Origin: Eledone cirrhosa
Taxonomy: Eukaryota
Length of the DNA: 64,000 nucleotides
NCBI GenBank assembly: GCA_964016885.1
Contig: OZ024742.1
Coordinates: 156,736,001 to 156,800,000, forward strand
Direction: 5' to 3'
Under the pieces are notes generated by a model. That model was not told the origin of the DNA. It saw only the letters and a program-made list of their open reading frames with translations, and searched no databases. Positions 18,159-47,870 of the stretch are shown one piece after another. A program made the translations under genes and the position numbers. The stretch's first letter is position 1; each line of letters starts with the position of its first letter.

Positions 18159-18218
<60 letters not shown>

Positions 18219-18226
18219 TAATAATA
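18159..18226 (+). repeat. (TAA)n microsatellite at the left edge of the retrotransposon cluster
   Basis: Direct read. Confidence 0.95.
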
Positions 18227-19235
18227 GGGAAGAAGACGCACGAGGTGACGGAGGTCATGAAATCGCTCCCGTAAGTTTTGAATTTTTAACATATTTAAAT
18301 CATTTGTGAAATAACAACTCTTAGTACAAATGCTACGTAAAGCACCCGGCTTGAGCCCCAAAAAATTCGGACCCAAAATATATTGTTATAAGGCTCAAAT
18401 ATTCAAATATTCAACTTTGTATTGTACACTGTATATCCCAAAAAAAAAATGGCTATAAATAGAAGAAGAAGAACCCCCCCCCCCCTCCTCGCCTCTGGCT
18501 ACACTATATAGGACAGCTAAACTCACCAACACCAGAAACTAGATACACCACCCACCCCATCATCTGTGTACACTAAACACAACAGCATTTTCACCTTCAC
18601 CTTCACCGCTCACTACGGCCATCATTACCACCACTATCCCATCACCGCCGCCACCAACCCTTGACTCCTTCACTGCTGCTGCCACCGCTACAGCACCATC
18701 ACTACAGTAATACGGTCGCATCACCGCCACCACTGCCTCGGTATCGACATCACCACCACCACTGTCTCAGTATCGCCAACGCCGCCCTCTCCCACTTCTC
18801 CCTGCTGGCTGCTACTACTACTTCCACATTATAGAATCCCTACTACTAACAAAGAGGAAGGCATCACAAAATATATAGATAGACTCAAAAGAAAAAAGAA
18901 AAAAACAAACAACAAAACCAAAGCAGCACAGCAACAACAGCAAAAAACGAGAAAAACAAACAGAGAAAAACAAAAACAAAAAAAGAAACCCCCAAAACGT
19001 AAAGAAAATAAGAATGAAGAGGGAAGCAGGCGGACGGACAGAGAAGAGGGGGGAAAAAGTAAAACTTAAAAAACAAAAACTAAGTCAGACATTCGAATAC
19101 TACATTACAATGAAACTTATGCTTATCCATTTTTGGGGCCCTTTCTGCCCGTGTGTTTGTTTGTTTATGTGTGTTCGTATACAGCGTGGTGATAATACCA
19201 CACAAGGGCCAAGTGGGATGGCGGATCCACAGATG

Positions 19236-44034: not shown

Positions 44035-47000
44035 CCAGATACGTACAAGAGGAACGAGAGGGGACATCCTTGGCGGACTGCGCGCATGATGTTGTACGGT
44101 TCCGAAAGATGAACGTTCACTCTCACCACAGAGCAGATGTCGCTGTGCATGGCAGCGATCCAGCCTCTGAAGACGGGCTCAAAGCCAGCCGTCGTCAGGA
44201 CAGCCGCTATATAACGATGGTCGACCCTATCGAAAGCTTTCAACTGATCTAAATTGATCAAGGAACCAACCGTGCCAGGTTCCCTAACTACCCTTTCTAC
44301 GATTTATCTACGATTTATCTACGATGGATCTGTCGGGAATGGCGCATGTCTGCGCCTCTCCCACCAGACCATCAACGACAAGCGCCAACCTCTTTGCTAG
44401 CACCATCGCCAAAACCTTGAAATCTGTGATTAGCAGAGTTATGGGCCTGAAAATATATGTTGTCGCCCTTGTTCGGATCCTTTCTCAGCAACGCCACCAC
44501 TCCTCGGCTCACATAGCTGGGAATTCTCCCGTTCTGTTGCCAGTTGCAGTAGACTTCCACCAAGAGGCCTCCGAACGAGTCTGGTATCTGTACGGGATGG
44601 TCATAGGGCAGACCATCCAAACCAGGCAATTTACCCCTTGTGCAGTCTGTCATTGCCTCCCGTACTTCAGCGGCTTTTATCGGCTTTTCGCAACACTCCG
44701 CCTCAGTGGCCGTCGAGGTAGACACTAAAGTCCATCCCTCGATCCGACCCGCCGCTGCCCCCGAACACCTGAGCGAAATGTCGCGGAAAAGCTTCACGCA
44801 TTTACCCTGGATGGAGTAGCATACGCCCGTCGTGGTCCACCAAAGACCGGATCGTGGATTTGTTGCCACAACGTGCCTCCGCCATTCGGGCCCATTAAAA
44901 CGGCTTTCGTCCCCTTGTGTCTGAGAGAACGCACCCTAGCTCTGACAACGCAGCCTTCGTCCTTTGCATTGAAGAATTGGTCAAGTGCCAATTTCGCCGC
45001 AAGTACGTCGGTCGTGATGCCTTTGCTAAGCACATCGTCTAATTTTCTAACTACTTCTCCCTCTGCTCTATTTTTCTCTAATGCTAAAGCCTTACTAAAC
45101 CTAATGGCCTTGCGCGCTGGTAAGGACGCGTTTCGCTTCCAGTAGCCGGGTCATCGTCTATGAAATTCAAGCAGACAAATCACAAATTTGTGGTGCGTGT
45201 AGCTGACTATCTAGAATTGTGGACAGCCTAGGCTAGACCTATCCATTTCCCTACAAAATACTCTATCTAGATATGATCTTGATGATCCTATGCGGTTTGA
45301 CAAACTCCACAATTGCACATTCGGGAAATCCAATCGGTACCTGTCAGACAGTTCAAAACGCCTGAGCAGGTTGGTGACGCTCTTGCACCGTCCTCCCCTA
45401 TCCGCTAATCCCACACAGTCTCAGCGTGCATCTAAGATCCCGTTCCAGTCGCCCACTAACACTAAAGCGCGGGACGTTCAAAGAAAGGTGTCCAGACGCC
45501 AGAAGAGATCAGACCACAATGCTCCTGTTGGGGCATAGACGGCCACTAGCCTGAAAACTTGCCCGTCTTCCCCTGTCACATCCAGCACCACCAGCTTACC
45601 ATCTGGGTCCAGGAAGATGGCTCGTATGGCTAGATCCAAACCTCTCCGAAAAAGCACAGCAACTGCTCCTCCCGACCCAGGACGGCTGGGAGATGCGTAC
45701 ACATCGTAGCCGCCGAAGATCGGTGCGAAGGCCCGTGCTTCGGAGATTCTGGTCTCGTTGATGGCCCCTACATTTATGTTTGGTGACCTGATGTAGTTGA
45801 GCAGATGGGCCTGCTTCCATGACGACCCCAAGCCACGCACATTTATGCTACCTATTCTGAGTGAGGTCATGTTGAAATGGATTGGAAAAGATGGGAAAGA
45901 CCACTTACCTTACTTCTCGTAGAGGAAGGATGGTTTGCCCATCCTTTTCACTGCTTGTGGCCTCCTCCGGAAGGATATCCTTATAAATCCTCCTGGAGAG
46001 TGTTTGTCGGAAGTCTCCGATGTCTTTGGGGAATTATTGTTTTAGTTTCGTGTACGTTTTCTGTGTGATGCGAGTGATTTGTATGTGTGGAGGTGGTGTG
46101 AACATTTGGGTTGTTATGTAGTCTTTTTCTGTAATGCTGGTGTGTTGTTGGATGTAGTGTAATAATTGGTTGTTGTTCAAATGTTTTGCCGTGTAGTGTG
46201 TATCGTTTTGGTTGTTTTGTTTTGTTTGCGTTAGTTGTGGGTTTGTTTCTGTTTCGTTTTTTGGTGACCTTTGTGGTGTTAGTGATGGTCGTGTTGGGGT
46301 TAATGATGGTGATGGTGTTGGTGTTTGTGGTGATGGGGTTGGTGATGCTGGTGTGGATGGTGGCATATATGTCCTAACTTTTTTGTTTGATAGTTTATTG
46401 GATTCCTTTTGTATTTTGTTTTTGGAGGAGGCAGGAAGGGGATTTTTTTCTTTTTTGATTTCTTTTTCTTTTTTTCTATTGTCCTGATACCGTTTACCAC
46501 TCCTCGTCATCACAATCTGTTTTCAGTTGCGATAGGTCGGGTAGTGGAAAACCCTCCTCAGGCGTGTGTAATGGTTGTGGCGTGGTGGATGGTGTAGTCG
46601 CTGGTGCTAGTTCTGGCGCGTTGTGTGGTGGTGGTTTTGGTTTTGCTACTGTTGCTGGGGTTGTTGCTGTTACAGTTGCTTCTGTTGTTGCTGCTACAGT
46701 TGTTGCAATTTCTGCTGCTGGTGGTGTTGATGGTTGAGTCACTGGGGTGGGTAAGTGAGGTGAGCTCAACATTTCAGCCTGAGGGCAGAAAGCCCTTAGG
46801 TGGGCTCCTTCACCACAAACGACACACCTAGGTCTTCTGCCCTCGACAATTACAGTTAGGTGGCTGCCGTCAGTGAGGTCTATTACCTCTGGGATATCCT
46901 CAATGCTTTTTTGGTTCGCTTGGATCAGGAGCTCCATCAGAGATCCGGACCAGTTCTCGTGCTTTTCTTTCGCTATTTAGATTATATTGGTGTTGGGTTC

Positions 47001-47870
47001 GATGCCGGCGAGGACGGCAGCTATTAGCCAGGGAATTTCGATGGCCGGTGGAACGTGGGTCACCCTGATCTTAACGAGTATCTGGGCACAATAGCTTGGG
47101 ACGAGTGTGAAGTCGTCACTTTTAATAGGACCAGGGATTGTTCTCTGGCCTCCTGTGGTGTTTTAAAGAACACATCCTACGGTTTCATATTTCTGCCCAC
47201 GTCTGATGTGGGTTTTTTCTTTGCCCACACATATCCCAAAGCTTTTTGGATTTGGGACTCGGATGCCCGTTCCACTCTGCGCGATTTTATGTTAATCGTC
47301 CGATAAGACACGGTGCATAGGCACCGAAGCTCCATTTTGTTAGGTGGGTGAAGGGGGGGGGGGGGGGAGACTAACCCTGTACCCATCTTTCTTTACGATT
47401 CTCTTGGCTTCATGTAATTCCTCCTGAGTTACCTGGATTGCTTCGCACTTTTTTGCTACTCTGGCAAAAGACAGGGTCGTTTTCTTATTCTCATTGTTGT
47501 TGCTGCTGTTGTTGCTATCGTTATTTTTGTTATTGTTATTTTTAGTTTCAGTTGTGGTGGTGCTGGTGTTGGTGGCGTCAGTGTTGTTCGGTGTGGAAGA
47601 GTCCATTTTGGGTTAATCAATTTCGATGTCACGAGAATTTCTTATTTTCTTTTGTTGCTGCTGTCGCTGAGGTGATAGTGGGGGTGGCGGCTTCAACACC
47701 TGCAGTCATTGGTAATGGCGGGAAATGAATGTCTGCATGAGACAAATTAAAATTATTGCTACTACTTATATTTTTAGTGTTTGCAAACGTAGTAATATTT
47801 ACAATGGTGGTGTCGGTGTGAGGTGTTAGTTTGTGAGGAAGGTGTGACTGTGACTCGTCCATGATTTGTT
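44035..47870 (-). mobile_element. Tx1/L1 copy 4; 3' half lost, 5' limit approximate
   Basis: ORF1 (CVVCGEGAHLRAFC), APE MTSLRIGSINVRGL, RT up to VRQGCPLSFLLYV, then abrupt join to copy 3 ORF1. Confidence 0.85.

Follow-up and report, generated by a model that had tools for sequence, protein, structure and literature searches.

Several families of long interspersed nuclear elements (LINEs) insert into simple repeats. Dong elements target (TAA)n in insects, molluscs and cnidarians, and the N-terminus of the Dong/R4 proteins is described as a diverged Myb/SANT-like domain without zinc fingers (PMC7998251), while in the Tx1 clade Kibi targets (TC)n, Koshi (TTC)n and the crocodilian Tx1 families (TTCC)n or (TTTC)n, with tandem insertions on record (PMC4494074). 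Two families can also share one repeat: in Bombyx, TRAS1 and SART1 occupy (TTAGG)n in opposite orientations, set by the strand that is nicked, and the TRAS1 endonuclease nicks a T-A step on its repeat (PMC7265360). Dong-R4 and L1-Tx1 elements are both present in cephalopods, and the portions of PMC13282606 and PMC8967140 available to us do not treat their targets or nesting. Our literature search, which left Repbase outside and does not establish absence from print, found neither a Tx1 family that targets (ATT)n nor a target common to Dong and Tx1. Here we describe a stretch of 64,000 nucleotides from Eledone cirrhosa (assembly GCA_964016885.1, contig OZ024742.1, positions 156,736,001 to 156,800,000 of the forward strand; hereafter the window), in which eight separately derived LINE copies, four of the Dong/R4 type and four Tx1-like, are piled up in and around TAA/ATT tracts.

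As to Dong, the stack conforms to what is already known. As to Tx1, a small number of junctions point to a probable new target in a clade with a record of choosing simple repeats, and the reading that we favour, with moderate confidence, is that the Tx1-like family targets (ATT)n on the strand opposite to Dong, which itself lies in TAA at both ends.

The window as a whole is A/T-rich and microsatellite-rich. Self-comparison, translation and Pfam searches resolved positions 18159-47870 into four elements with a restriction-like endonuclease (RLE) on the + strand and four with an apurinic/apyrimidinic-type endonuclease (APE) on the - strand, which agrees with an earlier sequence-only reading of this DNA. 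The order is A, B, C (Dong), E (Tx1), D (Dong), F, G, H (Tx1), and the two tail-to-tail joints (C/E and D/F) and the single head-to-head joint (E/D) noticed in that reading were all recovered. The stack opens on the left with a (TAA)22 tract (18159..18226, + strand), which adjoins (CA)n/(TA)n. Further tracts of TAA/AAT units occupy the A/B junction (22766-22783, about five units and one AAC), the B/C junction (26013-26034, seven units), the C/E junction (29881-29893, four units and one AAC), the E/D junction (35665..35717, an (AAT)17 tract of 17 units on the + strand) and the D/F junction (37940-37996, about 19 units, imperfect), the five places where TAA tracts had been reported. Chance placement does not explain these tracts, since in the window flanks outside the stack (AAT)2 occurs within 3 bp of just 1.8% of positions, and (AAT)3 near 0.18%. 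The description of the whole as a stack on (TAA)n holds for five junctions and the left edge, and has exceptions that had gone unmentioned: the F/G junction (39427) has a single ATT unit, which overlaps F's own sequence, and neither the G/H junction (44039-44049) nor the 5' end of H (47870), the right edge of the stack, has TAA.

The four Dong-type copies end in TAA on both sides (8/8 ends in the window), as had been claimed for their tails, and all of them carry (TAA)n on the sense strand. Copy A (18227..22783, +) is apparently full length, with a 5' untranslated region (UTR), the N-terminal part of the open reading frame (ORF), reverse transcriptase (RT), CCHC knuckle and RLE; it has a 4-bp and a 10-bp deletion and terminates in AATAAC(AAT)n. 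Copy B (22784..26034, +) is 5'-truncated, ends in (TAA)7 and belongs to a separate family, with 39-43% amino acid identity to A and D. Copy C (26035..29893, +) differs from A and D by 6.5-7.6%, and has a short tail, TAATAACAATAAT, an internal deletion of about 780 bp at 28815-28818, and a 440-bp tandem duplication in its 5' UTR (26014-26921, copies 91% identical). Copy D (35718..37996, +), 99.2% identical to A, is 5'-truncated and keeps an unbroken RT-CCHC-RLE frame of 715 amino acids, followed by the tail or tract at 37940-37996.

The single Dong ORF thus consists of RT (Pfam RVT_1, E 4.7e-23), CCHC knuckle and RLE, and lacks an APE; the motifs CRICG..HIVSEC, RHD and RPD..D..K in D are of the CCHC and RLE types. 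The best matches of the protein in PDB are R2 proteins (E 3e-29), which rank above L1. By eye the N-terminal frame of A has no CCHH motif, and Pfam gave no Myb match there at E 0.01. None of the 120 homologues listed is named Dong or R4.

On the opposite strand, Tx1-like copy E (29894..35664, -) is apparently full length, with ORF1, APE, RT and zf-RVT, and is decayed. Copy F (37997..39427, -) is 5'-truncated and has an ATT tract after its 3' end, while its 5' end meets the 3' end of G over one ATT unit, a microhomology. Copy G (39428..44049, -) retains part of ORF1, APE, RT and the 3' UTR, and its 5' side is fused straight to the RT of H, with no TAA between them. Copy H (44039..47870, -) is the most diverged, lacks its 3' part and has its ORF1 start near 47862; its 5' end adjoins a duplicated sequence, apparently unrelated to it. 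Directly beside that end, at 47873-48320, there is a duplication with a period of about 320 bp, which could be 5' UTR of H or an unrelated repeat.

The three 3' ends that are present all run into ATT in one register, with a C directly before the first ATT: F reads AATAAAGAAATC followed by ATT, G reads AATAAAGAAAAC followed by ATT, and E reads AATGAAAAAGC followed by ATT. Kojima's threshold for a microsatellite-specific Tx1 family is the presence of the target in more than 20% of flanks; here the repeat lies at 3/3 3' ends and at one or two of the four 5' ends in the window, with one further junction from sequencing reads.

These are two-ORF elements, and their ORF2 matches Exo_endo_phos (E 2.4e-13), RVT_1 (E 1.6e-22) and zf-RVT (E 2.2e-8) in Pfam. 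The RT shows 34% identity and 176 bits (BLASTP) to a protein whose automatic name is Tx1 149 kDa, and about 101 bits to human L1 ORF2p, the latter from a different program (phmmer). Among homologues that carry a name, the best for the APE-type RT comes from Argonauta (64%). Two types of ORF1/5' region, with 31% amino acid identity in the segment compared (33420-35450 against 43035-47870), are joined to ORF2 sequences of about 90% DNA identity, suggesting a possible exchange of 5' modules. At the 5' ends there is no curated ribozyme, since a scan of the window with Rfam at gathering level gave no match.

In target-primed reverse transcription, the strand nicked first primes the cDNA and sets the orientation of the insert. 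On this basis, nicking by the Dong RLE would fall on the (TTA)n strand, while nicking by the Tx1 APE would fall on the (AAT)n strand and there probably between T and A (AAT/AAT), and the opposite nicked strands would fix the opposite orientations of the two families. Target duplication together with the tails would leave a fresh tract at each insertion, and such tracts could give rise to head-to-tail runs within a family and to tail-to-tail or head-to-head joints between families. The young copy D sits in the ATT spacer between F and E, so Dong has reused a tract left by Tx1. The stack probably began at the right with H and then grew leftward in the tracts, because H is the most diverged copy and there is no tract at its 5' side; H may have been founded outside a TAA tract, or its tract may have been trimmed by deletion, and the young Dong copies A and D would have been added last.

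Stacking is not unique to this locus, as seen in four public read runs that we mapped onto 29560-35664, considering only the best-supported joints and ends (for loose ends the best 24, with 8,006 further ones). Two runs, X1 and X2, in which under 0.2 of the words were present, were used solely as evidence that Tx1 and Dong vary in depth independently of each other. Run X9 is a restriction-site-associated DNA library from one other sample, with reads that begin at SphI sites. In it, 60,351 loose ends run past the Dong 3' end (29893), and (AAT)10 is the consensus of the majority flank (agreement 0.74). The same run contains Dong-to-Dong joints leading from the Dong 3' end to 29560, 29565, 29601 and 29650 (1,306, 207, 107 and 436 reads, respectively), as well as a joint from 31090 to 29902 with (AAT)7 in between (113 reads), which reads as a differently truncated Tx1 separated by an ATT tract from the 3' end of a second Tx1, again in the same register. 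In addition, 4,216 reads at 29960 belong to fragments with their SphI site beyond the Tx1 3' end; set against the internal SphI sites (29,074 and 37,530 molecules) they give a rough ratio of 11-15%, which depends on several assumptions, and the chance level, calculated from only 12 sites in the window flanks, is 2.9%. With the same reservations, this estimate suggests that the 3' end of Tx1 frequently borders on another element.

Relatives of the Tx1-like family were found in G001, a bacterial assembly labelled Arenicella with many animal-type contigs of up to 94 kb (L081-L119 and L125-L126), which are host contamination. These contigs carry head-to-tail arrays of intact Tx1-like LINEs with 45-46% RT identity to the window family, a period of about 6.4-6.8 kb and an ORF2 of 1,158 amino acids, and a profile of the relatives aligns with L1 ORF2p across 1,000 positions (E 3e-132). 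The array units end in AATAAAG or AATAAAA followed by an array-specific spacer of 15-17 nt, and in L104 and L097 the spacer copies the flank outside the array. From these sequences the lineage appears to build tandems around a duplicated target without an inherent ATT tail, which favours ATT as the target of the window family.

Searches elsewhere returned little: the exact 24-nt Tx1 3' motif had no match in the metagenome contigs, no relative was confirmed among 87 candidate stretches in viral contigs, and the Dong protein gave weak, RT-level matches only (best E 6e-16) in five host-contaminated assemblies; Dong-like fragments are present in G001. A separate assembly of 17.8 Mb with much host DNA (G002) holds a two-ORF L1/Tx1-like element (L121:3359-8418), just downstream of a sequence at 3030-3200 in a microsatellite-rich repeat unit; by its 5' motif this sequence is putatively U1-snRNA-like.

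Several observations weigh against (ATT)n as the Tx1 target. In the window, E, at (ATT)17, is the only Tx1 copy of the four with a clear tract at its 5' end; F shows a single unit there, no unit is present at G or H, the stack lacks TAA at its right edge, and target site duplication lengths are unreadable inside the repeat. Every 5' ATT at a Tx1 copy, in the window or in the reads, comes directly after another Tx1 3' end once D is removed, and neither source contains a Tx1 copy in a TAA tract independent of another Tx1. Among the best-supported joints and ends in the reads, no Tx1 3' or 5' loose ends were present. As for the relatives, ATT was found at none of the 26 junctions scored in G001, which come from overlapping loci and are not independent, and among more distant relatives (28-39% identity) 3/57 had at least four ATT/AAT units no more than 1.2 kb from the ORF2 stop, 57 of the 92 loci being scorable. 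Moreover, neighbouring units in G001 are 98.9-99.8% identical in three of the four loci tested, so that unequal crossing over, not reinsertion, may have enlarged these arrays. ATT use is thus not conserved in the lineage, and arrays can, as far as these sequences indicate, grow by other routes too. The shared, self-propagating landing pad proposed earlier therefore survives in part: Dong uses and regenerates TAA, in this stack as at other loci, and D reused a tract left by Tx1, whereas the repeat is missing from the right edge and from the 5' ends of two Tx1 copies out of four.

Some of these observations also speak for the main alternative, which we consider rather unlikely, namely that ATT is the Tx1 element's own 3' tail, that Tx1 is non-specific and joins head-to-tail by template jumping or through a preference for its own ends, and that Dong alone targets TAA. 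Since the complement of an (ATT)n tail on Tx1 is (AAT)n, any Dong inserted into such a tail is automatically antiparallel, so the polarity of the stack requires one specific enzyme only. The strict strand polarity claimed in the sequence-only reading is accurate as to all eight orientations and is statistically weak by itself: given the Dong orientation, P = 1/16 for all four Tx1 copies on the - strand, and adjacent copies are not independent. An own tail would also account for both tail-to-tail joints, for D between F and E, for the TAA tract on the left of E as E's tail, and for the lack of TAA at G/H and at the 5' end of H; and the tandems of the relatives form without a microsatellite. However, it must join three adjacent, diverged Tx1 copies (G, F and E, with two ORF1 types) head-to-tail without a target preference, and needs another such joint at the locus seen in the reads. 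Among the relatives with readable ends, the closest lack an ATT tail and have spacers derived from the flank, and F appears slightly younger than E (32 against 51 private changes, p=0.048), which fits a later insertion into the spacer. We retain (ATT)n as the likely target of the Tx1-like family.

We also consider it very unlikely that part of the stack is a copy of a Dong-Tx1 composite (C+E giving D+F), made by segmental duplication or by unequal crossing over and afterwards masked through gene conversion, the explanation by which the sequence-only reading could have failed. An alignment of 2.5 kb at 90% identity does span the Dong/Tx1 joint (28815-31247 against 36869-39360), and the divergences of C-D (6.5%) and of E-F (6.4%, in the C-terminal part of the RT) are alike. 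Nevertheless, any two 3'-to-3' joints align by construction, so that such a match is expected, and the histories of the two halves differ. D is 0.8% from A (8 of 1,054 columns differ, against 68 between C and D), which makes A rather than C its nearest copy, and it is intact at both of A's deletions. E, F and G form a star, 6-10% apart, with 51, 32 and 41 private differences in 1,165 columns; E and F are not paired (chi-square p=0.11), and the share of G (41/124) does not depart from one third (p=1.0). In run X1 the depth over the Tx1 part exceeds that of the Dong bin about 100-fold, which means that Dong and Tx1 are not one unit there. These comparisons largely refute the composite, and support a separate derivation of the eight copies by independent insertions.

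Two other direct relationships between copies were rejected. The 5' truncation of D coincides with A's 4-bp deletion, and a copying of D from A was discarded because D is intact at that deletion; the coincidence is read as a common local AACTAAC repeat, through microhomology and slippage. A tandem duplication of G and H was ruled out by the private differences of E, G and H (64, 70 and 120 of 1,907), which show that G and H are not sisters and that H is the most diverged.

Finally, chance nesting in an A/T-rich, repeat-rich region, with specificity belonging to Dong alone, is highly improbable. In its favour, octopus genomes are rich in Dong-R4 and L1-Tx1, both of them recently active (PMC13282606 Table 1), and the four-copy Tx1 polarity amounts to just 1/16. 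Against it, none of the copies is broken by another at a random point in its interior, G/H being a possible exception; the junctions lie in tracts that cover under 2% of the flanking DNA; and tblastn (E 1e-4) detected no fragment of either family elsewhere in the window than at 18-48 kb.

The rest of the window contains repeats of other kinds. Long palindromes and nested inverted repeats occupy 9248-14810, 49755-52017 and 55505-59430 (for example 12627-13626, 10142-11029 with 13818-14693, and 59030-59430), and are probably fold-back or miniature inverted-repeat (MITE-type) DNA elements. Inside the inverted repeat at 55505-58700 there is a frame of 242 amino acids (57534-58259, - strand) that, judged by eye, may resemble a Penelope-type RT/GIY-YIG region. 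Three to four tandem copies of a unit of about 1.3 kb, 84-88% identical, lie at 1266-6062.

If the favoured reading of the stack is right, (ATT)n is a new target for the Tx1 clade, and two unrelated endonuclease types exploit one microsatellite from opposite strands. This would provide a concrete mechanism by which LINEs pile up locally in genomes with recently active Dong-R4 and L1-Tx1 (PMC13282606 Table 1), and an AAT-preferring APE domain would be useful, by comparison, for understanding how specificity arises in L1-type nucleases. Tentatively, and with slightly more doubt than belief, we extend this to a general proposal: an (ATT)n-targeting Tx1 family and two (TAA)n Dong families would nick opposite strands and renew the repeat for each other, forming self-propagating stacks of several families in the genomes of cephalopods. 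Such a system would be the interstitial RLE-plus-APE counterpart of TRAS/SART and might account for some of the transposable element hotspots of octopus.

Precedents exist for all the ingredients, namely Dong on TAA, microsatellite-specific Tx1, sharing of a repeat in opposite orientations, and tandem stacking. Like DongBm, DongAg, DongBg, the Darwinula elements Dong1 and Dong2 and octopus Dong-R4, the + strand copies have a single RT-CCHC-RLE-type ORF and (TAA)n at both ends; nothing substantial sets them apart, and here two families that are 39-43% identical occupy one tract. The - strand copies share with Kibi, Koshi and the crocodilian Tx1 families the two ORFs, the APE-RT-zinc finger order, an RT that appears nearer to Tx1 149 kDa than to human L1 ORF2p, simple-repeat junctions and tandem copies, and differ from them in that the repeat is (ATT)n, a pure A/T triplet, in a mollusc-like genome, and is common to an RLE family. 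TRAS1 and SART1 are likewise two LINE families on one simple repeat in opposite orientations, but both are APE elements at telomeres, whereas this stack combines RLE and APE elements in an interstitial trinucleotide tract, with a putative specificity on the Tx1 side. R1 (APE) and R2 (RLE) also have one multicopy target locus in common, the 28S rDNA, and R1 forms tandem arrays. R1 and R2 insert in the same orientation, and they use two distinct fixed sites within a gene, whereas the target here is a repeat that is extended by the insertions themselves.

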